From a bacterium (GTDB taxonomy: Bacteria; Omnitrophota; Gorgyraeia; Aquiviventales; Aquiviventaceae), in NCBI GenBank assembly GCA_036396895.1, contig DASWKB010000038.1:13145-77144 (forward strand): a stretch of 64,000 nt of DNA, read 5' to 3'. This document shows positions 34,147-55,913 of the stretch, one piece after another. The position numbers were made by a program, and so were the translations under genes. Below the pieces are notes generated by a model. That model worked only from the letters and a program-made list of their open reading frames with translations. It was not told the DNA's origin and ran no database searches. How positions within the stretch are numbered: position 1 is the first letter of the stretch; each line of letters begins with the position of its first letter.

Positions 34147-34202
34147 GATGGGGCTTCCGACTCCTTGCGTTGTGGTGGCTGCGCCCGTCGCCGCGTCAGA
34201 CG

Positions 34203-34702: not shown

Positions 34703-35356
34703 TTACACGCGCACGCGGAACTCGGCGCCCGCGGTTCGCTCGCCGGCGATGTCGCCCTCGAGTTCCCGGATCAGCGTCCGGCAGTCAATCCCGTGCCGCC
34801 AGGCCACCTCGTCGAGGCACACCAGTCCCTCATCCTGAATGTTGATGAACATCCGCCGGAATACCCCTGCGGCTTCCGGATAGGCACGGAGCACCCGGTT
34901 CACGGTCATTCGCTCATCGACGCCGGCCTCCACCGAAGGCTCACCGAACTCCTCCTCGGAGGGGAGCCGCCGTTCAAGTTCCGGAAACAGCATGGCTTCC
35001 TCCTCGTCCATATGCCGGCGCAGCCGCTCGATGAGCGCGAGGAGCCGCGGGCGGATCGCCGCACGTGCTTCTCCCGGTCCCTGGACGAACGCCCGGTTGA
35101 TGGCGCTCAGCAGGCGCGGCTCGCGGCGGTGCGTCACGCCCAGGTGCGCGATCTCATCCGGTTCCAGCGAGGCGCGGCACCGGCTGATGAGCGACTCCTC
35201 CCGCCTGATATGGTCCTTCAACTGGCGCGCGAGCGTGTACACGAGCTCCCTCGCCACGTACCATGCCTGCGGATGCAAGGCAAGCGCGCTCTCGAGGATC
35301 TGAAGTTTCGCGCGCAGCAGCGCGTGCTCGCGCCGCAGGCGCTCCACCGGTTGCAT
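34703..35356 (-). CDS. Hemerythrin HHE cation-binding domain + C-terminal DUF1858 (ScdA_N-like) protein; has the RIC/YtfE domains in reversed order
   Basis: H…HxxxE motifs (RREHALL, KDHIRREE, HMDEEE) and a C-terminal …VLRAYPEAAGVFRRMFI…CLDEVAWRHGID… segment. Confidence 0.6.
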   Translation of the reverse strand: MQPVERLRREHALLRAKLQILESALALHPQAWYVARELVYTLARQLKDHIRREESLISRCRASLEPDEIAHLGVTHRREPRLLSAINRAFVQGPGEARAAIRPRLLALIERLRRHMDEEEAMLFPELERRLPSEEEFGEPSVEAGVDERMTVNRVLRAYPEAAGVFRRMFINIQDEGLVCLDEVAWRHGIDCRTLIRELEGDIAGERTAGAEFRVRV

Positions 35357-35575
35357 CGCGACCTCCCGTCTCCTCCCGCGCCACAGAGACCCGGAGCGTA
35401 CGAGGTTGCGCGCTGTGGTGCTCACATCCTACGTTCGGCCTGCGCACCCTTTCGGCGTCGGCTCGATGATGATGTCCAACTCGCGCTCGAGGGCCGCCAC
35501 GTGGCCCGCCTGGACCTGCGCGCCGACGGCGATCATGATCAGGCGCGCCGGAACCCGGGCGCGCTATGACGCATG

Positions 35576-36271
35576 TCAGCCCCCGGCGCGGACAGTCCCG
35601 TCGCGAGACGCGGTCCGGCCGTTGCCGTCAACCAGATGCCTGAGCTGCTCCGGCGCGAGCACCGTGATCTTGCCGCGGGATGACGTGATCCACCCCTTCC
35701 GCTTCATCGTGGAAAGCGTCCGGATCGAGGTCTCCCAGCGAGTGCCGGCCATCCTGGCCAGCTCGTGGTGCGTCAGCGGAATCGTCACGCCGAAGGTCGT
35801 CCGAAGCCTGAGCAGCACCGAGGCCAGCCGCTGTTCCACGGGCGCCTGCCCGAGACGGATCGTCTCCGCCATGTGGCGCATCCGGTGAATGCAGCTGGTG
35901 ATGACCGCTTCGGCGAACTGCGGATACTGCGAAATGAGCTCGCCGCAGGTGGCGGACGGAATCCGAACCACCTGAGCGTCCGTGGCGGCCAGAGCCCCGG
36001 CGGAGTACGTCCCGCGTTCGAACGCGGAAATGCCGCAGAGCGCCTCGTCCGGCGTCATCGTGAAGATCGTCGCCAGGGATCCCTGGGGGGTGCGCTTCAC
36101 CAGGAACACGACCCCGCGCTTGAGCACCCACACGGCTTCCGCCGGCTGATGCTCCTCGAAGATCATGGCGCCCTTGCCGAACCGTAGACGCTGGCACTCG
36201 GACGCCAACTGCCGGCACACCGGGGACGGCAGAGCTTGAAACAGCGGCACAGAATCGAGCAGATGCTCCAT
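35576..36271 (-). CDS. Crp/Fnr family transcriptional regulator
   Basis: cNMP-binding beta-roll plus a C-terminal HTH (TIPLTHHELARMAGTRWETSIRTLS). Confidence 0.8.
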   Translation of the reverse strand: MEHLLDSVPLFQALPSPVCRQLASECQRLRFGKGAMIFEEHQPAEAVWVLKRGVVFLVKRTPQGSLATIFTMTPDEALCGISAFERGTYSAGALAATDAQVVRIPSATCGELISQYPQFAEAVITSCIHRMRHMAETIRLGQAPVEQRLASVLLRLRTTFGVTIPLTHHELARMAGTRWETSIRTLSTMKRKGWITSSRGKITVLAPEQLRHLVDGNGRTASRDGTVRAGG

Positions 36272-36398: not shown

Positions 36399-37055
36399 TC
36401 AGGAACGGACGAGCTCGCTGAGGTGCTTGGGATGGACGATCGTGGTCTTGCCGCGGACGGACCGGATCCACCCCTGCTGCTTGAAGCGGCTCAAGGTGCG
36501 GATGGCGGTCTCATGCGTCGTGCCCGCCAGCTCGGCCAGCTCGTGGCGGGTCAGCGGAATCGTCTCGCCGAATTTCTTCTGGAGCGTGAGCAAGACTTGC
36601 GCGATGCGCTTTTCTGCTGGCTCGTAGGCGGTGCAGCTCTTGTGCTCGACCTGGCGCAGGCGATCGCAGAACAGGCACAGCGTCTGGCTGGCGAATTCCC
36701 TGGACTTCGCCATGGCCTGGTGGAACATCTCAAGCGGAACCCGGACGAGCGTGCTGTCCACGGCGGCAATGGCATCGACGGGATAGGCCTTGCGGTCCAG
36801 CGTGGAGAGGCAACAGAAGGTCTCCCCGGGGGTCATGACGCACGTGGTGGATGCCCGGCCGTCGGCGAAGAAATTCATCAGGTGGACGCGTCCGGTACGC
36901 ACGACCCAGACCGCGTCGGCCTGCTCGTTCTGCCGGAAGACCGTTTCGCCCTTGGCGAACCCGCGCTCGCGGCTCACGGACGCGACCTGCTGCAACTCCG
37001 CGGGCGTCAAGCGCTTGAACGGATCCACGTTGGCCAGAAATTGCTGCATCATGCC
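36399..37055 (-). CDS. Crp/Fnr family transcriptional regulator (second paralog)
   Basis: From MMQQFLANVDPFKRLT…; has the HTH TIPLTRHELAELAGTTHETAIRTLS. Overlaps the end of ccsA. Confidence 0.8.
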   Translation of the reverse strand, partial: GMMQQFLANVDPFKRLTPAELQQVASVSRERGFAKGETVFRQNEQADAVWVVRTGRVHLMNFFADGRASTTCVMTPGETFCCLSTLDRKAYPVDAIAAVDSTLVRVPLEMFHQAMAKSREFASQTLCLFCDRLRQVEHKSCTAYEPAEKRIAQVLLTLQKKFGETIPLTRHELAELAGTTHETAIRTLSRFKQQGWIRSVRGKTTIVHPKHLSELVRS

Positions 37056-38773
37056 CCTGCTCGGACGCGGCGGGAAGCCATGACGGCGCCCAGGAGCGCG
37101 ATGAACGCCGCTTCTCCGATGGCGTACGCGATCAAGAGCGGCGGGATCGGCTTCGCGTTCCCGCCGGCATAGCTGTGCAGGCCGACCAGATAGAAGCTCA
37201 CACCATAATACGTCATCAAGAGCAGGAAGAATCCCGCGATCGTGGCCATCGCCACGCCGGCCGGCCGCAGCCAGCCGGCGAACCGGCCGTGCAGCACCGC
37301 GATGAACCACAAGAGCGTGATGAGCGCCCAGGTCTCCTTGGGATCCCAGCCCCAGTACCGGCCCCAGGACGCGTTCGCCCAGACCGCCCCGAGCATGATC
37401 CCGGCCGCCAGGAGCACCACGCCGACCTGAATCGTCCGGTAGAGCCACAGATCGAGCGCGGCGAGCGTGGCGTCCTCGCGGCGCGCGAGATACTTCGCGC
37501 CCGCAAAGTGCGCCAGGACCGCCGCCAGCGCCAGCGCGCCGTAGCTCGCCACGATCGTGAGGACGTGCACGGTAAGCCACAGGTTGCTGCGCAGCACGGC
37601 GACGATCGGGGTGATGCTGGAATCCAGCGGCAGATGGTCCGCCAGGATCAGGGTGATGACGGCGAGGATCGACGCCGCCAGCGCGAAGAACCGCACGCGG
37701 TAGCGCCACTCGAACACGAAGGCGAGGACGACCGCGACGAACGGCAGCCAGAGCATGGTCTCGTAGAAGTTCGCCACCGGAGGCCGCTCGGCAAGCACCA
37801 CCCGCGCGACCATGCCGCCCGCGTGGAGGGCCGCCGCCAACGTCATCGCGGCCATCCCGATCGCCGCCGCCCGCCGCGAGCCCGCCGCTGCCGTCGAGGT
37901 GCCGCCGGGTGTGACGCCCGGCGCACCCGCGCGCAGCCCGGCCGCCAGGGCCAGGATCGCCAGGACGTACGCGATGCGGGCGAGCAGGAACGGCTCGAGC
38001 CGGTTGTACCACACCTCGAGCGTGAGGCGCCACTCCGCGGGATACGCGGACGGCTGAAGGTCCCGGAGAGTCCGGCGAAGCGACCGCGCCGATTGCCCAA
38101 GCGCCTCCGCATCGCCGCCTCGCACGGCCTGGACGAAGGAGGCCCATGCGCCGCGGACGGTGTCCCGCGCCTCCGGCGGGTGGCCGGCCGGGTTCAGCAC
38201 GGGCAGCCAGGTCCGCTCAAGCCGCGACGCGGGCGGGACGAGATCGAGCTCCTGTTCAAAGAGGAGATTGAGCGTGACGAAGCGGTCGTACACGTCCATC
38301 GTTTCGTTCTCGGCGATGGTGAGCTTCTCATCGCGCTGCTGCTTCGCCACGATGGGCGGCAACAGCTGCATGAGCCGCCGCGTCGCGATGATCCCGTGGT
38401 AGGAGACGTGCGCGGACTCATCCGGCACCCCCAGCGCGTCGCGCAACGGGCCATACGGCACGGCGATGAGCGGCGCGTCCTGCCAGCGCTCCGGCTCCGC
38501 GATCAAGGAGAGCGTCGTCGCCACCGGGTCCTGCCCCCCCAGGGTCGGCGATCCCGTCAGATGCTTCAGGGTCTCCCAGGCGAAGCTGTCGAAGGGTTTG
38601 TGGCGCCCATGGTGCTGGATGACGATCCGCCGCGCGCCCGAGAGCGCCGCCTCCGGCCAGTCCCGCACGTCGGGCACGTCCCCGGCTGCCTGGACGGCGA
38701 TCCCCGCCGACATGACGAGTCCGCACGCGAGGCCCCAGACGCGCCAGGCGCGCCGCCGAGTGCCGATCATGCG
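37049..38773 (-). CDS. ccsA: Cytochrome c biogenesis protein CcsA/ResC (System II) with a large N-terminal periplasmic domain
   Basis: WWD domain WGRYWGWDPKETWAL and multiple TM helices. Confidence 0.8.
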   Translation of the reverse strand, partial: RMIGTRRRAWRVWGLACGLVMSAGIAVQAAGDVPDVRDWPEAALSGARRIVIQHHGRHKPFDSFAWETLKHLTGSPTLGGQDPVATTLSLIAEPERWQDAPLIAVPYGPLRDALGVPDESAHVSYHGIIATRRLMQLLPPIVAKQQRDEKLTIAENETMDVYDRFVTLNLLFEQELDLVPPASRLERTWLPVLNPAGHPPEARDTVRGAWASFVQAVRGGDAEALGQSARSLRRTLRDLQPSAYPAEWRLTLEVWYNRLEPFLLARIAYVLAILALAAGLRAGAPGVTPGGTSTAAAGSRRAAAIGMAAMTLAAALHAGGMVARVVLAERPPVANFYETMLWLPFVAVVLAFVFEWRYRVRFFALAASILAVITLILADHLPLDSSITPIVAVLRSNLWLTVHVLTIVASYGALALAAVLAHFAGAKYLARREDATLAALDLWLYRTIQVGVVLLAAGIMLGAVWANASWGRYWGWDPKETWALITLLWFIAVLHGRFAGWLRPAGVAMATIAGFFLLLMTYYGVSFYLVGLHSYAGGNAKPIPPLLIAYAIGEAAFIALLGAVMASRRVRAGA

Positions 38774-40512
38774 CCCCCTCCCCCCCAGCGCGCCGCCTTC
38801 GCCCGCCGCGCGATGAACATCCACACGACCCCGAGAATCACGATGAGAAATCCGGCGTACACCAGCGGCGTGCCGGGATCGTTCCGCACCGACAGCACCG
38901 TCGTTTCCACTGCGCCCGGGACGAAGCTCGACTGGAACAGGCTGTACCCGCGGTACTTGAGCGGGTTGTTCATGCTGATCTTGCGCATGAGGATAACGCC
39001 CCGCTCCAGGTCGCTCAGGTGGACGTCGCTTTCGAAGCCGGCGGCCATCTGCGTGCCGGGATAATCGATCTTCCTGAAGTCCAGCAGCTTCACGGTGAAC
39101 GGCAGCTCGCGCGTCTGCTGCTCGTAGCTCACCGTCACGGGGTGCCCGTTGAGATCCAGCTCGAGCGCGCCGCCGGATCCGACCCAGCCGTCGGCTTCAG
39201 CGTCGCTCGAGGACAGCGTCACGTGCAGCGCTTCCCCCCTGACCTCGTCGCTGCGGTTCGTCACGCGCTGCTCCAGGACGGCGCGCGGCGCGTACGCCTC
39301 CACGCGGAACACGTACTCGAGCCAAGGGTGCGTATACGTCTCGCCCGGCTCCAGATGCTCGACATGCCGCCGTTCGCCCGCCCGGCCGGTCAGCACCGCG
39401 CCCAGCCGCTCGGCGCCCGGATGCACGTAGAGCGCGATCGCATTCGGCGGCAGCGACGCCGAGAAGGGATGCGTGTAGCTCACCTGGGCCGGAATCTGAT
39501 GCTGCCAGCCGTGCATGGACGCGATGTCCGGATGGAAGGCGAAGAGCAGGTACGGGTCGGTCCCCTCCGGTCCGCTCAGCGTGAAGGCCACCGCGGGATT
39601 GTTCGGAGAGTCCGAGCGGGATTCGGGGCCATCCTCGCCGATCACGAAGTCAGGAAAGTAGTCGCGGAACGTGATCGTGTACGGAGTCCCCTCGACCGGG
39701 ATGGGCGTGTGCATCGTCTCCGGCACAGGAATGTCGCGCGCACCCAGGTCCGGCAGCGCCACGGCCACGACCCCCCGCAGGTGGCGGGTGGCCGGAACCG
39801 GCTCGATGAGGCGCGCGGCGTCGGCCTCCGTTTCCGGCTCGAGGAAGATGACGTGCGCGTCGCCCCAGCCGATCCCGAACCGCTCCGGGTCGCGCGCGAA
39901 GAGCCACAGCGCGTCCTGCTGGAGCCCGTGTTCCACCCTGACCCGCACGGCCGGGTTCGCCTCAGGCCCGCCATCGGTGACCTCGTCCTGCACCACCGCG
40001 TCCGGATAATACCGGTTCACCGTGAGCTCCAGGCGGCGGCCCTCCAGCTCGGCCGAGAACGACGCGTCGGGCTCGTGCACCCAGGCCTGCGTCTCGAAGA
40101 AGGTCGGGAACGCCCGGTGCCCGCCGGGATTCGGCTGATGCAGCACGAGGACCTTGCCCGGAAGCAGCAGCGTCCGGTTGGCCTCCCCTTCGCGGATCAC
40201 GAGCTGGCCCTCGATGCCGAAGCGGCCGCCGATGATGCCGCCGAGGAGAATGCAGATGATCCCGAGGTGCGCCAGGAGGAACGGCACGTGCTTGCGCTTC
40301 CACGGCACGCGACGCAGCGCCGACACCACCAGGTTCACCGCGAGAAATCCGAGGATCCCCTGGAACCACCACGCCTGGTAGATGAAGCGCTGGACGGAGG
40401 CCGTGCCGTAACGCGTCTCATAGATCGTGCCCCACGCCAGCACGATCGCGATCGCGAGGATCAGCGCGACCGCCATCTGGAGTGAGCCCATCCAACGAAG
40501 GAGTCGAGTCAT
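38767..40512 (-). CDS. ccsB: Cytochrome c biogenesis protein CcsB/ResB (System II)
   Basis: 581 aa with N-terminal TM helices and the ResB family N-terminus (…WGTIYETRYGTASVQRFIYQAWWF…). Confidence 0.8.
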   Translation of the reverse strand: MTRLLRWMGSLQMAVALILAIAIVLAWGTIYETRYGTASVQRFIYQAWWFQGILGFLAVNLVVSALRRVPWKRKHVPFLLAHLGIICILLGGIIGGRFGIEGQLVIREGEANRTLLLPGKVLVLHQPNPGGHRAFPTFFETQAWVHEPDASFSAELEGRRLELTVNRYYPDAVVQDEVTDGGPEANPAVRVRVEHGLQQDALWLFARDPERFGIGWGDAHVIFLEPETEADAARLIEPVPATRHLRGVVAVALPDLGARDIPVPETMHTPIPVEGTPYTITFRDYFPDFVIGEDGPESRSDSPNNPAVAFTLSGPEGTDPYLLFAFHPDIASMHGWQHQIPAQVSYTHPFSASLPPNAIALYVHPGAERLGAVLTGRAGERRHVEHLEPGETYTHPWLEYVFRVEAYAPRAVLEQRVTNRSDEVRGEALHVTLSSSDAEADGWVGSGGALELDLNGHPVTVSYEQQTRELPFTVKLLDFRKIDYPGTQMAAGFESDVHLSDLERGVILMRKISMNNPLKYRGYSLFQSSFVPGAVETTVLSVRNDPGTPLVYAGFLIVILGVVWMFIARRAKAARWGGGGA

Positions 40513-40686
40513 CAGCGGTGTGTCCGTGCCGTTACAACGGGAGGGCGACTGCGTCCCTGCCGACCATGCGCCTTATCATACTACACCGATGCGTCGGAAG
40601 GAAAGACGGGAAAAAACCTGGCCATGGCGACGAAGGCGAGCCCGCCGGCGCAGAGCCCCGCCGCGGCCATCGCGAGCGCGCGCCGC

Positions 40687-42603
40687 CTACACCTCGTCAT
40701 CCGGCTCGTTCTCGCGGTGGGCCCGATCCGACTCCGAGGGCCGCCCGCTGATCCACGTCCACTTCATCGGGTACTCGTCCGGGTCGAACATCACGAAGTA
40801 GAAGTGCCACACGGCGATCGCCAGGCACGCGAGGACCGCCTCGTAGTAGTGAATCGCGTTCACCACGTCGAAGCACCACTTCGGGAACACGCGCAGCGTC
40901 CAGTCCTGCCAGGTCATCAGCGTGCCCGTCAGCACCATCACGATGGAGCCCCACACGAGCGCCCAGTACTCCATCTTCTCGACATAGCTGTAGCGGGCGA
41001 AGACCGGCCGCGCCGCGCGCCGTCCCAGGTAGAACGCCAGCATGCGGAACGGATCGATGAGATCGCGGCGCCTCGGCCACAGCGCCGCCAGCTCCTTCCT
41101 GCCGCGCGTCGTGGCGGCCATGAACCACAGGTGGTACACCGACAGCAGCACGAACAGCGCCGCCGCGACCCGGTGCCCCATGCTCCGCCAATCGAACCGG
41201 CCGACGAAGGGGCTCGACCACCAGGCCTGCGGGAACGACAGCGCGAAGCCCGTGTAGGCCAGCGTCAGGAACGCGAGAATCAACAGGACGTGCTGGAGGC
41301 GCTCGCCGCGCTGCATCCGCATGCCGGTGGCCTGAGCCCGGTGGCGGCGGTAATGCTCGGCGAGCTTCCGCCTGAAGTCCAGGAAGTTGTGCGCGAGCAT
41401 CCCGCCGATCACCATCACGATCAGCGCCAGGTAGAACCTGCGGACCCACCCGACGACGCGGTGCTCCAGGCCCGGCCGGGTGCCTGAGTGGATCTGCCCT
41501 TTGGCGACCTGGGCGCTGACGCCGGGGTGGCACTTCCCGCAGGTCTGCGGCAGGTTCGAGGGATGCACCGAGGAGCGGGGGTCGTTCGAGGGGAGGATAT
41601 CGTGGGCCCCGTGGCAGGAGGCGCAGTTCGCCGCCGTCGGCATGCCCATCTGCAGCGCAAGCCCGTGGAAGCTCGACATGTAGGTGTCGACGGTGTGCGA
41701 CGGGAGCCCGTACTTGGTGATGATGCGCTCGGCTGCGTGGCACTGCCCGCACGTCTCGGGAATGTGCGAGGGGAAGACCGACGATGCGGCCAGCTTCACG
41801 GACGCGATGGTGTGCTCGCCGTGGCAGTCGGTGCAGACCGGCGCCTCGCGCTTCCCCGCCTGGACGGCGCCGCCGTGGACGCTGCGCAGGTACGTCTGCT
41901 GGATGTTCTCATGGCATTTCCCGCAGGTGGCCGGGATGCGCTGCCAGTAGAGCTTCGACCCCGGATTGGTCGCGCGGTGCAGATCGTGCGAGCCGTGGCA
42001 GTCCGTGCACACGGCCGCCGCCGCCACGCCCCGCTCGATGAGCGCCCGGCCGTGCACGCTCTCATCGTAGGAGGCCACCGGCTCGGGCTGCGCCAGCCGG
42101 AACCGGGCCATCTCGGCGGTCTTCCCGTGGCATTGCGCGCAGGTCTCGGGAATGTTGGCCCGGTGCACGGGCGAGGCGGGGTTGCGCGAGCTCAGCAGCT
42201 CATGGGCGTTGCCGTGGCAGCTGCGGCAGGTCGCCGCTTCGGTGACGCCGGCTTTCAGCGCCAGGCCGTGATCGCTGTTCAGGTAGACTTCGGTCTCGAT
42301 CCGGTGGCAGGAGGCGCAGCTCACGGGCGCAAGCGGCACGCCGTGCGGGATCTCCGTCACGTCCCGGTGGCAGCTCGTGCAGCGGTTGCGGCCGTGGATC
42401 GAGGCTCCGAACAGCTCGGGGTCGATGAACGGGTCCGCGGACGGGTCGCCGTGGCACGCCAGGCACGTGTCATTGTCCGGAGCCTCCTGCGCGCGCGCCG
42501 GCGCTGCGAATGCCAACACCAATCCCAGCGCCAACCATCGTGCCAAATTCGGAATTCGGAATGCGGAATGGCTCGGCGTACCGTTCGATGTGGAATGTGT
42601 CAT
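40687..42603 (-). CDS. Undecaheme c-type cytochrome fused to a C-terminal diheme cytochrome b (HydC/FdnI-like) membrane domain; same architecture as Geobacter CbcL
   Basis: 11 CxxCH motifs follow a signal peptide. The C-terminal 4-5 TM helices carry conserved His (MLAHNFLDF, SVYHLWF, NAIHYYEAVL, AVWHFYF). The start codon and N-region lie inside the GGAATKC element. Confidence 0.7.
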   Translation of the reverse strand: MTHSTSNGTPSHSAFRIPNLARWLALGLVLAFAAPARAQEAPDNDTCLACHGDPSADPFIDPELFGASIHGRNRCTSCHRDVTEIPHGVPLAPVSCASCHRIETEVYLNSDHGLALKAGVTEAATCRSCHGNAHELLSSRNPASPVHRANIPETCAQCHGKTAEMARFRLAQPEPVASYDESVHGRALIERGVAAAAVCTDCHGSHDLHRATNPGSKLYWQRIPATCGKCHENIQQTYLRSVHGGAVQAGKREAPVCTDCHGEHTIASVKLAASSVFPSHIPETCGQCHAAERIITKYGLPSHTVDTYMSSFHGLALQMGMPTAANCASCHGAHDILPSNDPRSSVHPSNLPQTCGKCHPGVSAQVAKGQIHSGTRPGLEHRVVGWVRRFYLALIVMVIGGMLAHNFLDFRRKLAEHYRRHRAQATGMRMQRGERLQHVLLILAFLTLAYTGFALSFPQAWWSSPFVGRFDWRSMGHRVAAALFVLLSVYHLWFMAATTRGRKELAALWPRRRDLIDPFRMLAFYLGRRAARPVFARYSYVEKMEYWALVWGSIVMVLTGTLMTWQDWTLRVFPKWCFDVVNAIHYYEAVLACLAIAVWHFYFVMFDPDEYPMKWTWISGRPSESDRAHRENEPDDEV

Positions 42604-42678
42604 GGACCGGCCGAGCGGGCATGACACGTTACACATCCAACATGACACAATCGGGATTCCGCATTCCGCATTTGGCAC
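42540..42678. repeat. Heptamer-array hairpin element, GGAATKC family, copy 2 (longest; near-perfect terminal inverted repeats)
   Basis: gtgccaaattcggaattcggaatgcggaatg …(unique core with tgtcatg/catgaca and ggctcggc/gccgagc sub-palindromes)… gggattccgcattccgcatttggcac. Confidence 0.75.
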
Positions 42679-42686
42679 TGATTTCG

Positions 42687-44200
<1,514 letters not shown>

Positions 44201-44201
<1 letters not shown>

Positions 44202-45485
44202 CACGAGCGCTCCCCCCGCGAGCCGTCCGGGCGGTCCAACTCCCTGATCCGCAGCACGAGGCCGAGGATCAAGAGCCCCAGGATCACGAGCGTCACCCAA
44301 AAGCCCTTGCGGCGGAAGTGGAACTCCTCCACCGCCTGCTCCCCCTGCCCCGCGGCCTCATCCGCATGGGCAAGCCCCTCCTCGACGATGGGGTCCATCT
44401 TGTCCATCGAAAAGGCGTGCACATACGCCCGCGACTGCGTCAGTTTGGCGCCCGCCTCGTGGAGCTCGAATTCCGCGTCCGCCACGTCCATGCCCAGGCC
44501 GTCGGCCTGTTCGATCAGGGCATTCGCGTCCTGCACGCGGGTCTTGAGCCGCTCGATTGCCCCGCGCATCGCTTGGGCGGTGCGGAACCCCGCGGACTCG
44601 GGCTCGTGGCAGCTGACGCAGAGCGCCTCGGGGCCGGTCCCGAGCATCTCGTCCGTCGGCCTGGCGATCAAATGGTTGCCGTGGCACACCTCGCACTCCG
44701 GCAGCCCCAACGCCTCGTGCGCCGCTTTGTGCGGGCTGTTGACGAACAGGTCGCGCGAGAGCGCGTGGCACTGGGCGCACACGTTGCCGACGGCGAGCGT
44801 GCCCGGGCGGGCGGCCTCGTGTGATCCGTGGCAGCTGGCGCAATGGGGCGCCGCGCGGTCGCCCCGGAACAACAGCGCCTGGCCGTGCACGCTCCGCGAA
44901 TATTCCCAGTGCTGATTGACCGGCAGCCCGTGCCGGTCCATGACGGACGCGTCCGCATGGCACGTCGCGCACGTCCCGGGGATGTTGGTCGCATAGACCG
45001 GCGAGGAGGGGTTGCGCGCCTGCAGGATCCCGTGGACGCCGTGACAGCTCGTGCAGACGGGAACGTCGGCGTCGTGCGCGGCGAAGCGTTTGCCGTGCTG
45101 GCTCGTCAGGTACTTCGCGTACTGGTCGGTCGGCAGGTTCGGATTGAACCGCCGCATGTACTCCGGATTCGCGTGGCACCGGGCGCAGAGCGCCGGGATC
45201 TCCTCGCGCCGGATATGCCCGAGGAACCCCCGCGCGGGATCCATGGCCGCCTCCGGATCCATGGAGGCGGGATCTCCCCCGTGGCAGTCGGCGCACGTGA
45301 GCCCGCGCGCGGCATGCACATCGTCGGGAAACAGCGCGGCCGGCCCCCGGGTGCCGCCCTCCATGGCCTGATGGCATTCCACGCACCCGCTGCCCTTGGT
45401 CTGTGCCTGCGCCGCCGGCGCCCATGCCGGGATCGCGAGCGCCGCGACGACGCCGGCTCGCAGCACCACCGCCGAGCGCGTCATG
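44201..45485 (-). CDS. Nonaheme c-type cytochrome with signal peptide and C-terminal TM anchor
   Basis: From MTRSAVVLRAGVVAALAIPAWAPAAQA; 9 CxxCH; C-terminal WVTLVILGLLILGLVL helix. Its ATGA overlap with the cytochrome b stop suggests translational coupling. Confidence 0.75.
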
Positions 45486-46560
45486 GCGCGTGCCCGATCC
45501 AGAGCGCGTAGACCGTCATGCCCACCACGTAGCTCATCCCGACCCACCCCAGCAGCGCCATCAGCCAATGCGCCCGTCCGCGGCGGGCCGGACGGTCCAG
45601 CCACGGCACCAGCACCAGCGCGGCGCCCGCAATCCCGATGCCGCCGATGGCGAGCAGCTCTCCTTCCAAGCCGAAGACATGGCTCGGCACCAGCTTCAAG
45701 GTCTGAAACATCCAGAGGAAGTACCATTCCGGCTCGATGCCGGCCGGCGTCGGCGCGAAGGGATCCGCCTGCTCGCCCAGCGTGGCCGGCAGGTACACCG
45801 CGAGGGCCAGCACCGCCCCGAGCATCACGCACCATGCGACCAGATCCCGGAGCAGGAAGTCCGGCACGAACGGCATGCTGCGCTCGTCCCGCACAGAGAG
45901 CGGCCGGCTCATCCCCTGCATCTGAATCATGGCCAGATGCGCGCCCAGCAGGCCCAGGAGCGCGATCGGCAGGATGGCGATATGCAGCCAATAGAACCGC
46001 CGGATGGTCGCCGCGCCCACTTCCGGACCTCCGCGCAGCATGGTCCCGATGACCGGGCCGATCCCGGGCACGGCCGCGGAGATTTCCGTGCCGACTTTCG
46101 TCGCGAAGTACGCGAGCGTATTCCACGGCAGGAGGTACCCGGTGAATCCGAAGCCCATCAGGAGGAAAAACAGGAGCGCCCCGCTGACCCAGGTCAGTTC
46201 CCGGGGCGGGCGGTACGCCTTCAGGAAAAACGTGCTCGCCAGATGCACGAAGGCGGAGAGGATCGCCACGTTCGCCGCCCAGGCGTGCACCGAGCGCACG
46301 AGCCAGCCGAACTCCACCTTGGTCATGATGAAGCGGACGGACTCGAACGCGTGCTCGGCGGAGGGCTGATAGTACAGCAGCAGCAGGATGCCGCTCAGAA
46401 TCTGGATGACGATCAGGACAAGCGTCATGCCGCCCCAGTAATACCAGATCGTGTGCCGGTGGACGGGCACCGTCTTGTGGGACGCGAACTCGCCGAGGCG
46501 CTGCAGGGGATAGCGGCTGTGGAAGAAGCCGCGCAGCCGCTCAGCCGCGCGCGCGAACAT
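45481..46560 (-). CDS. petB: Cytochrome b (bc1/b6f family, b6 + subunit IV fused length)
   Basis: …WGGMTLVLIVIQILSGILLLLYY…, the heme-ligand His regions (SVHAWAANVAILSAFVHL…) and a PEW-like region (LPW). Confidence 0.85.
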   Translation of the reverse strand: MFARAAERLRGFFHSRYPLQRLGEFASHKTVPVHRHTIWYYWGGMTLVLIVIQILSGILLLLYYQPSAEHAFESVRFIMTKVEFGWLVRSVHAWAANVAILSAFVHLASTFFLKAYRPPRELTWVSGALLFFLLMGFGFTGYLLPWNTLAYFATKVGTEISAAVPGIGPVIGTMLRGGPEVGAATIRRFYWLHIAILPIALLGLLGAHLAMIQMQGMSRPLSVRDERSMPFVPDFLLRDLVAWCVMLGAVLALAVYLPATLGEQADPFAPTPAGIEPEWYFLWMFQTLKLVPSHVFGLEGELLAIGGIGIAGAALVLVPWLDRPARRGRAHWLMALLGWVGMSYVVGMTVYALWIGHAP

Positions 46561-46811
46561 GGAGCCTCACGGGCAAGCCCGTCGCACTTGTCATCCCACG
46601 CTCCGCGTGAGGCGACATCCCGCCCCCGGTCTTGGCCGGAGCAGGCTCGGCGGGATGGAGCCTCACGGGCATGCCGGTTGCCCACATGAACACCGCCCGT
46701 GGGGCGGAATCCCGCGCGAGCCCACGGCCGCTGGCCGTGGTGCGAGTCGCGGGATCACCGGGTCCTTTCGCGCGCGTCATGATCCGCACCGGCAGCGCGC
46801 CCGCGGCTCCG
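46560..46811. repeat. Structured spacer between Rieske and cytochrome b genes, with direct and inverted copies of GGAGCCTCACG and several short stem-loops
   Basis: Two direct repeats of about 26 nt (atggagcctcacgggcaagcc…/atggagcctcacgggcatgcc…), an inverted copy (cgcgtgaggcg), and hairpins cgggcaagcccg and ccacgggc…gcccgtgg. Confidence 0.45.
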
Positions 46812-47294
46812 TCATGAGGATTTCGACACGACAATGTCATCGCCGCGGATGTTGACCTGAAACGCCTCGAGCGGCCGCGGAGGAGGCCCCGAGATCACCT
46901 GGCCGTTCAGGTCGAACTTGCCGTTGTGGCAGGCGCACCAGATGACGCTGGCGTGATCGTCGTACTGCACGGTGCAGTTCAGGTGCGTGCACACGGCGGA
47001 AAACGCCTTCAGGTCTCCGTGCGGCGTATGGACGAGCAGCGCGGGCTGGGACCCGAACCGGAAGATCTTGGCCTGGTTGGCGGCCAGCTCGCCGACTCTC
47101 CCCGCCACCACGTTCGACACCGAAGCTTCCCGGCCCATGGGAGGATAGAGATACCGCACGATCGGGTAGAGAGTCGACCCGATCAGGGCGAGGACGCCGC
47201 CTTTCAGGAGCCCCCCGAGGAACGCGCGCCGGCTGAACCCCCGGCGCGGACACATAATCCCGTTTGACGGTTCCATCTCGTTGCTCCGACGCAC
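46812..47294 (-). CDS. petA: Rieske [2Fe-2S] iron-sulfur protein with twin-arginine signal
   Basis: Tat motif SRRAFLGG; Rieske boxes CTHLNC and CACHNG. Confidence 0.8.
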   Translation of the reverse strand: MRRSNEMEPSNGIMCPRRGFSRRAFLGGLLKGGVLALIGSTLYPIVRYLYPPMGREASVSNVVAGRVGELAANQAKIFRFGSQPALLVHTPHGDLKAFSAVCTHLNCTVQYDDHASVIWCACHNGKFDLNGQVISGPPPRPLEAFQVNIRGDDIVVSKSS

Positions 47295-47394
47295 AAGAGG
47301 AGGCCGCCCGCCGGCTCCCGCGCATCCGCGCGTCAGTCAGGTCGCCTGGCGGGCGGCCTCCGCAGTGCCCGTGACGCCGTGCCGGAAGCCCGGA

Positions 47395-49431
47395 TCAGAA
47401 CTTCTTCGACACCTCCAACCACAATGCGTTCGCCCGGTAGTTGCCCGCCTCCGCCAAAGACTTGGCCAGATAATGATAATATCCGTACTTCGCGCCGAGT
47501 GTCACGTCCTCCTTCGGCGACCAGTTCACGCCGAGCTCCAGGTCGAGCCGCTCGTTGTCGATGCCGTACGGCAGCGCCGTCGGCGACACGTCATTGAAGT
47601 TCTCCGCGTCGGCATAGAGCAGCGAGGACGTCAGCGACACCGCGGACGTCGGCGTGTAATCGACGGTCAAGAGCCAGGTGGTGACATCGCTGCTGAACGC
47701 CGCGATCGGCGGGTTCGGACCGTGGCGGGCCGGCGTGACCACGTCCGCATCTTGCCGGGACACGGACCCCAGCACCAGGAGCCCATTGAGCGGCTGGAGC
47801 GCCACATCGTAGGTATAGATGTGCGACAACGTCTGCGTCTCGACGCTGTTCATGCCCTGCACCGCGGTCGCGTAGTCATCGTCCCGCAGCTGGTAGCGGA
47901 ACGAGGTGCGCAGCCAGCGCCGTGGCTTGAGCGTCACGCGGGTCGTGAACTCATCCGTGGCCTTGTTGGCATAGTCGATGAACGCGGAGCTGAACGACGT
48001 CTCGAATTGGTCGTCGTAGTCATTGTTGCTCCGTTTGTGGCGCACCTGGCTCGTCACGTCCAGGAACCGCCACGGCGAGCTCCGGGCGCCCAGCGTCCAG
48101 CCGCCGCGGCGGACATCGGTCACCGTGTCCCGGTAGAAGGAGTTCGCGCCCGTGATCCCGTCGGATTGATCTTCGCGAAGCCGGATGCGCGCCTGCTCCA
48201 GCTCGAGGTCCGTGTACACCGACGTACGGGGGATTCCGGTGAACTTGAGCGAGACCGCTTCGCCCCAGCGGTGCTCGTTCGAATCGCTGATGTTGTTCTC
48301 GATCCCGTCGATCACGCCGTCGGGCGACGCCCCGGAGGCCGGCGAGCCGTCTTCAGGATATACGGAGACGCTCTCGCGTTTCGCGAGCTCCGCCTTGAGC
48401 CGGGTGGTCAGCGTGAGCGAGTCCGCGACGTCCACCGCCAGGTTGCCGACCCAGGCGTGCGTATCCACATCGCTGTCGGCGCGCGCGTTCCGCTTCTGCT
48501 CCGAGAAGCTGAAGAAATTCGTCGGCACCCCCGCCGCGTTCAATTCATACAGGTCTTCGTATTCGCGGGCCGTCAGGTGCGCGAAGTGATACGCGCTGGC
48601 GAAGAACACCTTTTCTTCCAGGAACGCCCGCTCCGCGCCGAAGAGCGAGGTCAGCACCGCCGCCTCCGGGCGCTGGTCGTGCCGCCGCATCAGCTTGTCG
48701 GCGGCGGTGGCGGTGGTCGAGATGTCCCGCTCGAGCCGCACGGATTCGATGTCGACGAACTCCGCCTCGTGCTTGGTGGTCAGGTTCCACTCCGCCACCT
48801 CGTCGGCGATCTCGAAGCCCACGACGTCGACGATCTCATCCACTTCCTGCCAAGTGGGCGCGATATTCCGGGTCACCGCCTCCTCCGCTTCGCTCCAGGT
48901 GAGGCGGGATTTCGTGCCGTCCTTGTACTCGCGTTCATAGAACAGCTTGATGTCCGGGAAATCCTCGAGCGTGAGGCCCGCCTCCAGCTCGATCTTGCCG
49001 ATGTCCATCTCCAGGCGCTTGTCCGTTTCGCTCCCCGAGAGCGTCGTGAACGGCGGATACACGCCGCCCGTGCCGTCGTAGTATTTCCGGAATTCCTGGA
49101 AATTCAGGTGGACGTACCCGAGGCCGCCCCAGTTGTACTCGAGCGCCGTCCCGAGATCGTTATCGTCGATGATGGCGTGCCCGGTTGCGCGGAATTCGGT
49201 GTCGCCCTCCCCTTCGACCTTGAGGGAGAAATCCTCGATGCCGCCGCCGTAGCCGTCCTTGATCCAGTGGTGCGCCCGGAACTTCTCGTCATCCCCCTGC
49301 ACGTCGATATAGCGCACGGGCAGCACCGTGATCGAGGACTCCATCTCGGCGGCCGCCGCGGTCCGGGCGCTCCCCAGGAGGCCGCCCACGGCCATGACCA
49401 GCGCCCCCACCGCACCGATCGTCGCTCTCAT
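47395..49431 (-). CDS. Outer-membrane beta-barrel protein (large, about 650 aa mature; C-terminal Phe)
   Basis: Signal peptide MRATIGAVGALVMAVGGLLGSARTAAAA, alternating amphipathic beta-strand pattern with aromatic girdle residues throughout, and a terminal …LWLEVSKKF. Confidence 0.55.
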   Translation of the reverse strand: MRATIGAVGALVMAVGGLLGSARTAAAAEMESSITVLPVRYIDVQGDDEKFRAHHWIKDGYGGGIEDFSLKVEGEGDTEFRATGHAIIDDNDLGTALEYNWGGLGYVHLNFQEFRKYYDGTGGVYPPFTTLSGSETDKRLEMDIGKIELEAGLTLEDFPDIKLFYEREYKDGTKSRLTWSEAEEAVTRNIAPTWQEVDEIVDVVGFEIADEVAEWNLTTKHEAEFVDIESVRLERDISTTATAADKLMRRHDQRPEAAVLTSLFGAERAFLEEKVFFASAYHFAHLTAREYEDLYELNAAGVPTNFFSFSEQKRNARADSDVDTHAWVGNLAVDVADSLTLTTRLKAELAKRESVSVYPEDGSPASGASPDGVIDGIENNISDSNEHRWGEAVSLKFTGIPRTSVYTDLELEQARIRLREDQSDGITGANSFYRDTVTDVRRGGWTLGARSSPWRFLDVTSQVRHKRSNNDYDDQFETSFSSAFIDYANKATDEFTTRVTLKPRRWLRTSFRYQLRDDDYATAVQGMNSVETQTLSHIYTYDVALQPLNGLLVLGSVSRQDADVVTPARHGPNPPIAAFSSDVTTWLLTVDYTPTSAVSLTSSLLYADAENFNDVSPTALPYGIDNERLDLELGVNWSPKEDVTLGAKYGYYHYLAKSLAEAGNYRANALWLEVSKKF

Positions 49432-49449
49432 CTCGCCTCCTCCCTCGCC

Positions 49450-50568
49450 TCAATACCGCAGGTGGTCGCTGAAGTTCGACCCGTGGACCGCCGTGTGGCA
49501 GCCCGCGCTGAAACACGTCCCTTCCGGTAGGCGACCCGCATGGCCCGAATTCCCGATGCTCGGGAAGTTGACCTGGGTGTGGCAGCGCAGGCACAGGTTC
49601 GCGTCCCGCGCGACCAGCATCTTGTCGTTGATCGAACCGTGAACCTGGTGGCACTCGGTGCATCCCTCGCGCAGCGCTTCGTGCTCGAACACGAACGGCC
49701 CTCGCTGCTCCTTGTGGCACTTGAAGCACGCCTCGTTCGTGCCGTGGAGGCTCGTCGCCGACCAGGGGCGGACGTCCGTCGCGTGCGCGTCATGGCAGTC
49801 CGCGCAGCTCATCTTGCCTTCCAGCACCGGGTGGTGGTGCGTCATCCGGAACTGCATCTTCTTGTCCGTGTGGCAGGCGAAGCACGCGTTGGGGTCCTTG
49901 CGGGGGTTGATCATTCCGCCGACGCCGCGGCCTCCGCCGGCGTCCACATGGAGGCTGCCCGGCCCATGACAAGTCTCGCATCCTTGCGCCTTGAGGCCCT
50001 CCACCTCGCCCGGAATGGCAATGCGCGCGTGCGAAGAGTGCTTGAACTCCTTGGCCTCCTTGGCGTGGCACATGGCGCAGGTCTCCGTGCCGACGTATTC
50101 CGCCTTGGGCGCCTCCTCCGCTCCGTCCTCCGCCTGCTCATCGGCCCATGCCGCCGGCATCGCCAGGGAGGCCAGATACCGGTTGACCGACCGCGGTGGC
50201 AGCGAAGATTGCGGGCTGCCGGGCAGGGAGGCGGGGTCGGACGGGTTTGTGCCGGCGTTCAGCTCCTCGCCGTTCGTCGCGCCGTCTTCGTCGGCGTCCT
50301 GATCCTCGACGGCGCGGTAGTCCTCGATCGTGAGGGCCAGGGCGTTCCCGGCCCCCTTGAGCGCCTCGAGCGCCTTGCCGTAGGCGTTCAGGTCGCCTTT
50401 CTTCCCGACCGCGCTCTCATGGCAAGCCTTGCACGTCACGGCCTTCGTGTCCGGATAGGCGGCCTTAAAACTCTTCACGTTCTGGATCGTCGCCCAAGCC
50501 GAAGGCGCCATGACGAGCCACGCCAACAAGCCTCCCACTATGCCCAGCATGCCCCGCATGTCCCGCAT
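49450..50568 (-). CDS. Multiheme c-type cytochrome (8 CxxCH + 1 CX4CH) with an N-terminal monoheme/DxDxDG Ca-binding-like domain
   Basis: Signal peptide; CKACH, then DQDADEDGATNGEE, then CAMCH, CETCH, CFACH, CADCH, CFKCH, CTECH, CLRCH, and CFSAGCH near the C-terminus. Confidence 0.7.
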   Translation of the reverse strand: MRDMRGMLGIVGGLLAWLVMAPSAWATIQNVKSFKAAYPDTKAVTCKACHESAVGKKGDLNAYGKALEALKGAGNALALTIEDYRAVEDQDADEDGATNGEELNAGTNPSDPASLPGSPQSSLPPRSVNRYLASLAMPAAWADEQAEDGAEEAPKAEYVGTETCAMCHAKEAKEFKHSSHARIAIPGEVEGLKAQGCETCHGPGSLHVDAGGGRGVGGMINPRKDPNACFACHTDKKMQFRMTHHHPVLEGKMSCADCHDAHATDVRPWSATSLHGTNEACFKCHKEQRGPFVFEHEALREGCTECHQVHGSINDKMLVARDANLCLRCHTQVNFPSIGNSGHAGRLPEGTCFSAGCHTAVHGSNFSDHLRY

Positions 50569-50618
50569 TGCTCCCCCCTCAGGCTGCATCCGCGCACCAC
50601 ACTCGGCCGTTCCTGAGC

Positions 50619-50996
50619 TTATGATGACGGCGAACCCTCCGGAGCCGACGCGGGATCGGACGGATCCGTCCCCGCCTCGAGCTCCTCGCCGTTGGTCGCG
50701 CCGTCTTCGTCAGCGTCCTGGTCCTCGACGGCGCGGTAGTCCTCGACCGTCAGGGTCAGGGCGTTCCCGGCGCCCTTGAGCGCCTCGAGCGCCTTGCCGT
50801 AGGCGTTCAGGTTTCCCTTCTTGCCGATCGCGGCCTCATGGCAGACCTTGCACGTCACGACCTTCGTGCCCGGATAGGCGTCCTTAAAACTCTTGACGTT
50901 CTGGATCGTCGCCCGGGCCGAGGGCGCCATGACGAGCGCCGCCGCGATGACGCCGAGCCCGATTACGAGACCGTGACCGATTCGCATGGCTGGTTC
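50619..50996 (-). CDS. Small secreted monoheme cytochrome c with a DxDxDG motif; tandem paralog of the N-terminal domain of the downstream multiheme cytochrome
   Basis: MRIGHGLVIGLGVIAAALVMAPSARA signal, CKVCHE, DQDADEDGATNGEE. DNA about 90% identical to 50224-50520. Confidence 0.6.
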   Translation of the reverse strand, partial: EPAMRIGHGLVIGLGVIAAALVMAPSARATIQNVKSFKDAYPGTKVVTCKVCHEAAIGKKGNLNAYGKALEALKGAGNALTLTVEDYRAVEDQDADEDGATNGEELEAGTDPSDPASAPEGSPSS

Positions 50997-52087
50997 TCCT
51001 GCGCGTCCGTCCGCCACCACCGCAGAAAATGCTCGGTCTGCCGCGACAGCATGGCGCGGCACGATGCCACGGCCCGGCGGCGGCTCGCCAGTGTCGTGTC
51101 CACGGCCGTTTGCAGATCGTCGATGTTGTAGAGCGTGACGCCCGGCATGCGGCCGACCGCCGGATCCACGTTCCTCGGCACCGAGAGATCGACGATGACG
51201 AGCGGGCGGGATCCTCGGACGGCCTGCGCCGATTCGATATCGCCGGGATCGATCACGTAGTGCGGCGCCTGCGTGCAGACGATCGCGACATCGATGTGCG
51301 CGAGATGCCGCTGGGCCTGCTCCCATGAGAGCCAACCGCCGGAGCACAACGAGGCCAGTTCCCTGGCTTTGGCCTGGGTTCGGTTGACGACCCAGACCTG
51401 GCCGATGCCCGCGGCGGTGAGATGGCGCACCGTCGTTTCCGCGGCCTTGCCCGCGCCCCACAACAGCGCATGCGCCTCGCCGAGACGCTCGCCGAAGAGC
51501 CGGCGGAGGAGCCCCGCCACCACGGACCCGATCGACCCCGGACCGCCGTTCACGGCCGTGCGCGTGCGGATCAGCTTGGCGGCATGGAGGGCCTTTTGGA
51601 AGAGCCGGTTCAGGAGCATGCCGGTGGCACCGGCGTCCTGCGCGGTGAGGTAGGCCTGCTTGACCTGCGCGGCGATCTCGGACTCGCCCAGCACCATGGA
51701 GTCCAACCCTGAGGCCACCTGGAACAGGTGGGACACGGCGTCGTGGTTCGCGCGCCGGACCAGCGCCGCCTCGAGCCGGGCCGGTTCCGCTCCGGCCCGG
51801 GCCGCGAACATCTCGCACGCCGCGCGGGCGGCCGCATCGGGATCAGTCCCTGCCAGATAGCATTCGACGCGGTTGCACGTCGAGAGCACCACGGCCTCGT
51901 CGATGGCCGCCGATGCGCACAGCGCGCGGAGCGCATCGGGCAGCTCGCGGGGGTGGAAGGCCAGCCGGTCGCGCAGATCGAGCCCCGTGCCGCGGTAGTG
52001 CACCCCCACCACCGCGAGCGCCCGCGCCCGCGCCGAGGAGGAAGGCGCCGCGCCAGCAATGGGCTGGATGTGGTCTGTCTGCGCAGT
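50963..52087 (-). CDS. hemA: Glutamyl-tRNA reductase
   Basis: …VLSTCNRVECY…, a C-terminal NAD-binding and dimerization region, about 375 aa from MTAQTDHIQP. Confidence 0.85.
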   Translation of the reverse strand, partial: TAQTDHIQPIAGAAPSSSARARALAVVGVHYRGTGLDLRDRLAFHPRELPDALRALCASAAIDEAVVLSTCNRVECYLAGTDPDAAARAACEMFAARAGAEPARLEAALVRRANHDAVSHLFQVASGLDSMVLGESEIAAQVKQAYLTAQDAGATGMLLNRLFQKALHAAKLIRTRTAVNGGPGSIGSVVAGLLRRLFGERLGEAHALLWGAGKAAETTVRHLTAAGIGQVWVVNRTQAKARELASLCSGGWLSWEQAQRHLAHIDVAIVCTQAPHYVIDPGDIESAQAVRGSRPLVIVDLSVPRNVDPAVGRMPGVTLYNIDDLQTAVDTTLASRRRAVASCRAMLSRQTEHFLRWWRTDAQENQPCESVTVS

Positions 52088-52207
52088 CATGGACGGATTG
52101 GGAGAATTATAGTCCCGCCTCTCGGCCGGCGCTAGGATGGAATTGTGCTCGAAGGGCATGCCTGATCTATCCAGATACGTCGAGTATTCGAAGACAGGAC
52201 ATCCGTC

Positions 52208-53162: not shown

Positions 53163-53283
53163 GCTCCGGAGCTCGTCCAGGACGGTGCCCGGCTTGTCGT
53201 GTTGTGTCGAACGCTCGAACGGGCTCCCGGCTCTACGGTAGCGGGAATCCCGGATGGCCTTCTATGACGTGACGCATGTTCGT

Positions 53284-55903: not shown

Positions 55904-55913
55904 TGTGCCTCCC

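Follow-up and report, generated by a model that had tools for sequence, protein, structure and literature searches.

Gene content and organization of the island

We describe here a gene island rich in multihaem c-type cytochromes that lies in a 64-kilobase (kb) stretch of DNA from a bacterium of the phylum Omnitrophota (assembly GCA_036396895.1, contig DASWKB010000038.1, positions 13,145 to 77,144), the whole of which is called the window below. The guanine-plus-cytosine content of the window is ~69%, and the minus strand carries almost every real gene, including those of the island (Table 1). A first-pass annotation of this DNA had listed a monohaem and an 8+1-haem cytochrome, an outer-membrane barrel, a Rieske protein and cytochrome b, a nine-haem anchored cytochrome, ImcH-like and CbcL-like proteins, two cytochrome maturation genes and a Crp/Fnr regulator, and all of these genes were borne out in position, strand and haem count; haem prediction from motif counts, which it had proposed as a check, recovered 1, 8+1, 9, 7 and 11 haems. 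Its bounds for the island hold for the genes inside them, except that the Crp/Fnr gene falls just outside the start that it gave. The unit also extends beyond its list: hemA belongs to it, and a second Crp/Fnr gene lies at the other end.

Table 1. Genes and features of the island, in the order of the minus strand (positions are those of the window)
Feature	Position	Strand	Supporting evidence
hemA, glutamyl-tRNA reductase	50963-52159	minus	Pfam GlutR_N and Shikimate_DH
Free monohaem c-type cytochrome, 122 amino acids (aa)	50619-50987	minus	1 CXXCH, Sec signal, TSP3_bac match
MtrA-like 8+1-haem cytochrome	49450-50589	minus	8 CXXCH and CFSAGCH
Outer-membrane barrel, MtrB-like sheath, 678 aa	47395-49431	minus	26 strands in AlphaFold2 model
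Rieske 2Fe-2S subunit	46812-47294	minus	PF00355, 53 bits; ATG at 47276 is the likelier start
Rieske-cytochrome b spacer, 251 nucleotides (nt)	46561-46811	minus	Duplicate of ribosome-binding site (RBS) and start; inverted repeats
Cytochrome b, fusion of b6 and subunit IV, 359 aa	45481-46560	minus	PF00033, PF13631, PF00032
Nonahaem cytochrome with C-terminal transmembrane helix	44201-45484	minus	9 CXXCH
ImcH-family heptahaem inner-membrane protein, predicted quinol oxidase, 504 aa	42687-44201	minus	CX3CH and 6 CXXCH, 3 transmembrane helices
CbcL/MtoC/MtrH-family protein	40687-42603	minus	11 CXXCH and PF01292 cytochrome b
CcsB/ResB, System II cytochrome c maturation	38767-40512	minus	PF05140, 100.5 bits
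CcsA, System II haem handling	37049-38770	minus	PF01578, 120 bits
Crp/Fnr-family regulator	36399-37052	minus	Generic Crp/Fnr/FixK matches far below cut-offs
Second Crp/Fnr-family regulator	35576-36271	minus	Generic family matches

Successive genes are tightly packed. Start and stop codons overlap by 4 nt between cytochrome b and the nonahaem cytochrome, by 1 nt between the nonahaem cytochrome and ImcH, and by 4 nt both between CcsB and CcsA and between CcsA and the Crp/Fnr regulator, while the end of hemA shares 25 nt with the start of the monohaem gene. The gene for the MtrA-like cytochrome has alternative starts at 50568 and 50550. A scan for promoters and terminators gave nothing exceeding background, and an Rfam scan of the window returned no match. 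Together with the family assignments and the gene order in relatives set out below, this packing argues for a single tightly packed operon that would encode a complete envelope-spanning electron-transfer chain, and we put the probability of this explanation, together with the mechanism and the outward direction proposed below, at roughly 65%.

The octahaem cytochrome and its outer-membrane barrel

The centre of the island is a pair of genes, for a multihaem cytochrome and, directly downstream of it, the barrel, a protein deposited as HEX9780536.1 under the annotation "hypothetical protein". An AlphaFold2 model of the barrel, built from 35 homologues, has a predicted local distance difference test (pLDDT) score of 85.3 and the strand number that is likewise found in MtrB (cited in PMC12133095). 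In a Foldseek search with this model, MtrB (6R2Q_B) ranked first with template modelling (TM) scores of 0.67/0.70, followed by 22-strand TonB-dependent receptors at 0.34-0.48. By two methods MtrB was the top structural match, at 13-14% identity in the structural alignments; no NCBIfam match and no sequence match in the PDB were obtained. The first-pass annotation had suggested counting strands and comparing the barrel with MtrB, since its view of the island would fail if the protein were a generic nutrient porin. The strand number, the match to MtrB and the constant pairing with an MtrA homologue all speak against such a porin.

The partner, annotated 'cytochrome c3 family', has MtrA as its best PDB sequence match (6R2Q_A, E 1.4e-31; query residues 166-373 against chain residues 62-325). 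It consists of an N-terminal monohaem/TSP3 domain, a linker of ~50 aa rich in Pro, Ser and Ala, and an octahaem core, and its alignment with MtrA points to the loss of an internal two-haem unit. Of 24 related genome loci, 23 keep the motif pattern of the core, seven CXXCH and one CX4CH, as do 55 of the 58 partner open reading frames (ORFs) of distant metagenome loci. Wherever DNA upstream of the barrel gene is available, the cytochrome gene adjoins it: this is so in ~25 loci, most of them in Omnitrophota genomes, and in 64 of the 80 metagenome loci, where barrel identity is only 22-29%. On gene order and the barrel model, the octahaem MtrA homologue and the 26-strand barrel are thus best described as an obligate gene pair.

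A profile search over 1.84 billion representatives places the barrel in a family of 856 clusters (50% identity), of which 353 reach E <= 1e-30, with hundreds of clusters coming from groundwater and soil metagenomes. Among the top matches, 26 of 110 near-full-length barrels carry one or two monohaem PSCyt1 domains (PF07635) fused at the N-terminus (P0385, P0390, P0394, P0401, P0410, P0442 and ~20 more; loci L035-L114). These fused barrels, from soil, peat and groundwater metagenomes, retain the gene for an octahaem partner with seven CXXCH and CX4CH directly upstream, and their other neighbours are variable (Ig-domain surface proteins, a sigma factor, a PPIase). The barrel of the window has no such fusion. 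Its occurrence in a subfamily nevertheless argues, independently of gene order, that the family works with haem proteins.

The free monohaem protein matches the N-terminal 128 aa of the MtrA-like protein at 78% identity, and its gene is, judging from this identity, a recent paralogue of the N-terminal domain. Its TSP3 repeat is of the calcium-binding type. An alignment of the monohaem/TSP3 domain (50619-50987 and 50206-50589 in the window) revealed no conserved Met or second His as a distal ligand, the conserved residues being Lys, Tyr and Asn; the haem may be five-coordinate or ligated by Lys or Tyr. Fusion of the domain to the MtrA-like protein is confined to the closest clade, of ~9 loci. 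The free protein is a candidate periplasmic shuttle or docking module.

Inner-membrane modules

ImcH proteins have been defined by three transmembrane helices, a CX3CH motif beside the membrane domain and six CXXCH motifs, with lengths of 495-519 aa in the Geobacter group (PMC6295460). In the ImcH-like protein of the island, hydropathy peaks at residues 18-36, 50-68 and 101-119 correspond to three N-terminal transmembrane helices in a NapC/NirT-type region, and CGLVCH at 134-139 accompanies six CXXCH motifs, so that every published element of the ImcH architecture is present in its 504 residues. In ImcH of Geobacter sulfurreducens, haem 1 has H137 as proximal and, unusually, Q179 as distal ligand, and E127, K173 and Y188 are conserved at the menaquinol site (bioRxiv 10.1101/2023.05.03.539133). 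The spacing of E129, K175, Q181 and Y190 from H139 in the window protein is identical to that of the Geobacter residues, in a comparison made through the published numbering. K175 and Q181 are invariant in 21 homologues, while E129 and Y190 are majority residues only. The top 120 homologues all come from uncultured Omnitrophota and Elusimicrobia.

The next protein fits the CbcL/MtoC/MtrH family, in which a periplasmic c domain carries 3-23 CXXCH motifs (PMC6295460). Its membrane domain is recognised as a dihaem cytochrome b of the HydC/FdnI type (PF01292, 54.7 bits against a cut-off of 30.1), and six histidines of that domain are invariant in seven homologues (H405, H438, H477, H491, H585 and H600). 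A crude hydropathy scan gives 4-5 segments against the ~six transmembrane helices of the family.

The third module contains a Rieske protein with CTHLNC and CACHNG boxes and an RRAFL Tat motif, and a cytochrome b with HX13H and HX14H ligand pairs, PEWY, no haem-ci cysteine and ~7 transmembrane helices. The best NCBIfam match of the cytochrome b is to cytochrome b6 (229 bits) and the second best to ExtP (208 bits), both below their cut-offs. The nonahaem cytochrome encoded between cytochrome b and ImcH has a helical C-terminal stalk of ~90 aa and one transmembrane anchor (395-413). Because of this anchor and of the overlapping reading frames on both sides, it is probably the c-subunit of the Rieske/cytochrome b complex, and ImcH may be made in fixed proportion to it.

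The first-pass annotation counted three different quinone-linked modules here. All three families are indeed present; their separateness is less certain, since cytochrome b, the nonahaem protein and ImcH are translationally coupled and may form one complex. It also drew attention to the adjacency of ImcH and CbcL, whose genes are unlinked in Geobacter. They are adjacent in the island, beside the barrel, but the arrangement may not be unique: D. acetexigens has homologues with consecutive accessions, which hints at adjacent genes. As to whether the cytochromes might instead be enzymes acting on nitrite or hydroxylamine, their relatives lie in electron-transfer families, namely MtrA/DmsE, ImcH with its K175 and Q181, and CbcL/MtoC/MtrH.

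The spacer between the Rieske and cytochrome b genes stands out from the close packing around it, with 251 nt here against 5 nt at the same junction in a related locus (L004). It contains a 27-nt, 89% identical copy of the RBS and ATG of cytochrome b (46559-46585 and 46655-46681), and several inverted repeats in it could pair with the duplicated RBS. The spacer may be a translational control element or the leftover of a duplication.

Conservation of the island in related genomes

The closest homologues of the island proteins are found in metagenome-assembled genomes (MAGs) of Candidatus Omnitrophota/Omnitrophica, mostly from groundwater. The order Crp, hemA, (monohaem), MtrA-like, barrel, Rieske, cytochrome b, nonahaem, ImcH, CbcL, CcsB, CcsA recurs in four loci, L008, L011, L015 and L023, although the available sequence of L015 ends at ImcH and L023 lacks matches to Crp and hemA. 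A fifth, L010, has the same order without CbcL, and rearranged combinations occur in L019, L018, L026 and L034. Parts of the order are wider spread: Rieske, cytochrome b, nonahaem and ImcH follow one another in L004, L008, L010, L011, L015 and L023; hemA lies upstream of the pair in L004, L005, L008, L010 and L015; and a Crp/Fnr homologue does so in L008, L011, L015 and L032, with both paralogues in L015. L004 has a molybdopterin oxidoreductase module that separates the barrel gene from the Rieske gene. The repetition of this order in independent MAGs argues that the arrangement is not due to chance.

An unrelated contig of 2.7 Mb (L007) brings together an ImcH homologue, ResB, a decahaem MtrA-like protein, a barrel that Pfam recognises as MtrB_PioB, a small cytochrome c and a CbcL-like protein. 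With the rearranged loci, this contig indicates that the association of ImcH, MtrA-like, barrel and CbcL families is recurrent.

Two further observations were made in these loci. Upstream of the pair in L002 lie genes for a two-domain Cu oxidase and a P-type ATPase, and in L005 (18969-20843) a dCTP deaminase gene is split by an intein with a LAGLIDADG endonuclease domain.

Comparison with known electron conduits

The pair resembles MtrAB of the Shewanella MtrCAB complex (6R2Q), with which it shares the barrel type, with MtrB as the best structural match, and an MtrA-homologous partner that carries the C-terminal CH...HGSN signature and is encoded directly upstream of the barrel. It differs from that complex in having no MtrC, in the eight haems that remain without the internal two-haem unit, in the CX4CH motif of the last haem, in the added N-terminal monohaem/TSP3 domain, and in a barrel sequence almost without similarity to MtrB. 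MtoAB (with MtoD and MtoC/CymA) of Sideroxydans, Gallionella and Dechloromonas and PioAB of Rhodopseudomonas share with it the make-up of a two-component conduit that has no surface cytochrome. The Mto clusters also include a monohaem periplasmic protein and the CbcL homologue MtoC, and mtoC/mtrH beside mtoAB/mtrAB is an established pattern (PMC6295460). On the other hand, MtoA and PioA are decahaem proteins, their barrels are recognised by Pfam, no ImcH or Rieske/cytochrome b lies in their clusters, and they belong to another phylum; the monohaem protein of the island, furthermore, is unlike that of Mto in architecture, with its TSP3 repeat and no obvious distal ligand.

At the inner membrane the closest parallels are in Geobacter. 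The island protein shares with ImcH (GSU3259) the three helices, the CX3CH and six CXXCH motifs and, through the published numbering, the spacing of Glu, Lys, Gln and Tyr, and its neighbour resembles CbcL (GSU0274) in joining a multihaem c domain to a cytochrome b of the HydC/FdnI type whose His residues are conserved, but has 11 haems and not 9. In contrast to Geobacter, imcH and cbcL are adjacent in the island and ImcH is translationally coupled to the Rieske/cytochrome b-nonahaem unit. A 2018 survey explicitly found no imcH adjoining an MtrAB-type pair (PMC6295460). The extHIJKLMNOPQS genes of Geobacter similarly combine an outer-membrane porin and multihaem cytochromes with Rieske and b6-type cytochrome b proteins (PMC5877670), but ExtI is a small porin of ~45 kDa akin to phosphate-selective porins, whereas the barrel here is MtrB-like; ExtP and ExtQ are split, whereas their counterparts here are fused; and the island has no rhodanese or selenocysteine cytochrome. 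The Ext equivalog cut-offs are not reached (ExtP, 208 against 290 bits; ExtQ, 27.9 against 150).

More distant likenesses exist. The PCC3 and PCC4 clusters of Fe(II) oxidisers (He et al. 2017), likewise proposed to span the whole envelope, combine a porin with multihaem cytochromes of the periplasm and an inner-membrane protein that acts on quinone. Their wires, however, have 21 to 63 haems, their inner-membrane protein has 5 helices and WX3HX13H motifs, and they lack ImcH, CbcL, a Rieske protein and any homologue of MtrA. Cyc2 has a monohaem domain fused to the N-terminus of its barrel, as does the fused subfamily described above (26/110); in that subfamily, unlike in Cyc2, the fused domain is PSCyt1, the barrel is MtrB-sized and a separate octahaem partner gene is kept. 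Two other systems were considered and set aside: the D. ferrophilus DFE clusters, on which earlier 'metal-reducing cytochrome' calls in Omnitrophia were based, are beta-propeller-type systems and not this module, and the FLEET-type electron transfer of sister lineages is unrelated to the island.

Proposed mechanism and direction of electron flow

By analogy with MtrCAB, Mto and Geobacter systems, the octahaem cytochrome would be threaded through the barrel and carry electrons across the outer membrane. The organism is taken to have two membranes because TamB is encoded in the window. In the periplasm, the tethered N-terminal monohaem domain and its free paralogue would collect or deliver electrons, and ImcH, CbcL and Rieske/cytochrome b would link the chain to the (mena)quinone pool at differing redox potentials or energy yields. 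HemA would supply haem precursor. Such a chain could run either way. We consider outward flow most likely, in which menaquinol would be oxidised and the electrons passed to Fe(III), Mn(IV) or humics outside the cell, or to a partner cell. We favour this direction because ImcH homologues are so far known only from reducers and have been linked to quinol oxidation alone (PMC6295460), and because the flanking genes suggest an anaerobic organotroph or hydrogen-cycling organism; the anaerobic-type genes in the window comprise PFOR, PEPCK, NiFe hydrogenase with Hyp genes, and acetyl-CoA synthetase. The first-pass view of the island as a system for extracellular electron transfer is therefore supported as far as computation goes, by the conserved MtrA-like/barrel pair, by the ImcH and CbcL features and by synteny.

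Several results weigh against this explanation, and some of them concern the identity of the pair. Pfam MtrB_PioB (PF11854) scores 30.3 bits on the barrel against a gathering score of 23, but the match is local and non-collinear (residues 550-652 against profile positions 249-360), and the precomputed match is flagged 'faint'. An hhalign comparison of the barrel profile with the canonical MtrB_PioB barrel of L007 found nothing (probability 1.4%), so that the case for homology with MtrB is one of structure and gene pairing and not of sequence. The cytochrome scores 162.5 bits with TIGR03508, the DmsE/MtrA decahaem family, below its cut-off of 192.2, and in place of the ten CXXCH motifs of that family its MtrA-like part has eight haem sites, seven CXXCH and a terminal CX4CH followed by HGSNF, one further CXXCH sitting in the added N-terminal domain. 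Its AlphaFold2 model, from 38 sequences, is too poor (pLDDT 54.6) to give the shape of a wire. Others concern the chain: an MtrC-like cytochrome, as a third partner, is neither conserved beside the pair nor present in the window, and the known MtrC-less systems, MtoAB and PioAB, act in Fe(II) oxidation. The inner-membrane modules are absent beside the pair in most distant loci, so the case for wiring to ImcH, CbcL and Rieske/cytochrome b is one of gene order in Omnitrophota only. Finally, the nitrite reductase genes NrfHA adjoin the pair in three relatives (L005, 12445-13776; L014, 1929-3356; L023, 4557-6110), with NrfA (cytochrome c552) scoring ~445-449 bits in L014 and L023.

Some of these points would be accommodated if electrons flowed inward, with the pair drawing them, in the manner of MtoAB and PioAB, from a cathode, from Fe(II) minerals or from Fe(II) outside the cell. 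The role of MtoD would then fall to the monohaem protein, the CbcL/MtoC-type protein would reduce quinone, Rieske/cytochrome b would branch the flow uphill or downhill, and the electrons would end on nitrite or a quinol oxidase. The missing MtrC-like partner is as expected from MtoAB and PioAB, the combination of monohaem, MtrA-like, barrel and CbcL-like proteins is like that of the mtoA/B/D/C clusters in Gallionella and Dechloromonas (PMC6295460), a bc complex is used for uphill flow in A. ferrooxidans (PMC5566968), and the groundwater source is suitable. Also in its favour are the NrfHA genes that adjoin the pair in relatives, the Cu oxidase of L002 and the NnrS and hemerythrin genes that flank the island. 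The restriction of ImcH homologues to reducers, noted above, stands against this direction, as does the lack in the 64-kb window of any cytochrome c oxidase, nitrate, nitrite or NO reductase or carbon-fixation marker, the sole oxidase-like gene being a weak match to cytochrome bd subunit I; the NIR_SIR and radical SAM genes upstream, moreover, resemble assimilatory or haem-synthesis genes. We regard inward flow as unlikely on balance, although it deserves to be taken seriously.

It is more doubtful still, and in our view improbable, that the region is a general neighbourhood for anaerobic respiration and cytochrome maturation and not a wired pathway, in which case the inner modules would feed periplasmic reductases such as nitrite reductase and the pair would be a separate unit that shares regulation and haem supply. 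The pair does stand alone in most distant loci, its neighbours in relatives vary (NrfHA, a molybdopterin oxidoreductase with NrfD, Cu oxidase), and CcsBA, hemA and Crp are service genes that separate units could share. A loose neighbourhood is hard to reconcile, however, with strict co-linearity and start/stop overlaps over ~15 kb in several MAGs that are 25-50% apart in protein sequence, or with the independent assembly of ImcH-like, MtrA-like, barrel and CbcL-like genes in L007, L018, L019 and L034, and the island itself contains no gene for a periplasmic terminal reductase.

Genomic setting, maturation and regulatory genes

Among the service genes of the island, CcsA scores 162 bits with TIGR03144, below the cut-off of 187.6, and the WGRYWGWDPKETW motif is present in its sequence. 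It carries an N-terminal extension of ~300 aa, consisting of a signal or anchor and a soluble region, and NCBIfam aligns residues 309-535 only. Oxygen sensing of the FNR type was considered for the two Crp paralogues and rejected: the N-terminal Cys cluster was not seen, and both have generic family matches only.

A four-subunit NiFe hydrogenase of cytosolic type (large, small, NAD-binding/FeS and Fer4_22 subunits) is encoded at 17352-26617 together with hypF, hypD and a fused HypA-like N-terminus, and PFOR (27580-31218) and PEPCK (32464-34206) adjoin this region. The bd-like gene (11619-13112) encodes a 497-aa membrane protein that matches half of the cytochrome bd subunit I profile at 48.5 bits; it may be a divergent quinol oxidase, and its neighbour (10501-11916) has no family match. 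A HemD/HemE fusion is also encoded in the window. Upstream of hemA, at 52208-57851, lie genes for an ArsR-type regulator, a hemerythrin-domain protein, NnrS, an AhbD-like radical SAM protein (TIGR04053, 466 bits) and a NirA-like sirohaem protein, and a second hemerythrin-domain protein is encoded below the island (34703-35425). The set of NIR_SIR, radical SAM, NnrS and hemA likewise precedes the pair in L004. A reading of these upstream genes as nitrogen-oxide functions is weakened by the AhbD-like assignment, which belongs to haem synthesis, and by the NIR_SIR protein, which falls below all cut-offs.

Significance

Bacteria with two membranes use porin-cytochrome conduits for the respiration of minerals, for the oxidation of Fe(II) and for electron exchange with electrodes or with partner cells. 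The Omnitrophota are mostly ultra-small bacteria, suspected of being host-dependent or predatory. ImcH and CbcL homologues had previously been counted in Omnitrophica, three of each, and for some Omnitrophia Seymour et al. 2023 mention no more than generic 'metal-reducing cytochromes'. In the literature that we searched, we found neither the barrel family with a CX4CH octahaem partner, nor PSCyt1-fused barrels, nor imcH beside an MtrAB-type pair.

We tentatively propose, as a possibility that for now has the odds against it, that the octahaem CX4CH cytochrome and its 26-strand barrel represent a distinct and unnamed class of conduit, sister to MtrAB, MtoAB and PioAB and widespread in uncultured groundwater and soil bacteria, which in Omnitrophota would be hard-wired to ImcH, CbcL and Rieske/cytochrome b for electron exchange with minerals or with partner or host cells. 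Surveys of conduits use profiles made from Shewanella, Geobacter and Fe(II)-oxidiser proteins, and the pair would be expected to escape them because the barrel is annotated as hypothetical and its partner as a member of the cytochrome c3 family. As a self-contained operon of ~15 kb that combines a supply of haem and cytochrome maturation with three quinone modules and a wire through the outer membrane, the island would be attractive for heterologous reconstitution. The system could be used to test whether ImcH-type and CbcL-type modules feed an Mtr-type conduit, and what role the CX4CH haem plays at the presumed cell-surface end. If functional, it would give a poorly understood phylum, the Omnitrophota, a capacity for extracellular respiration.

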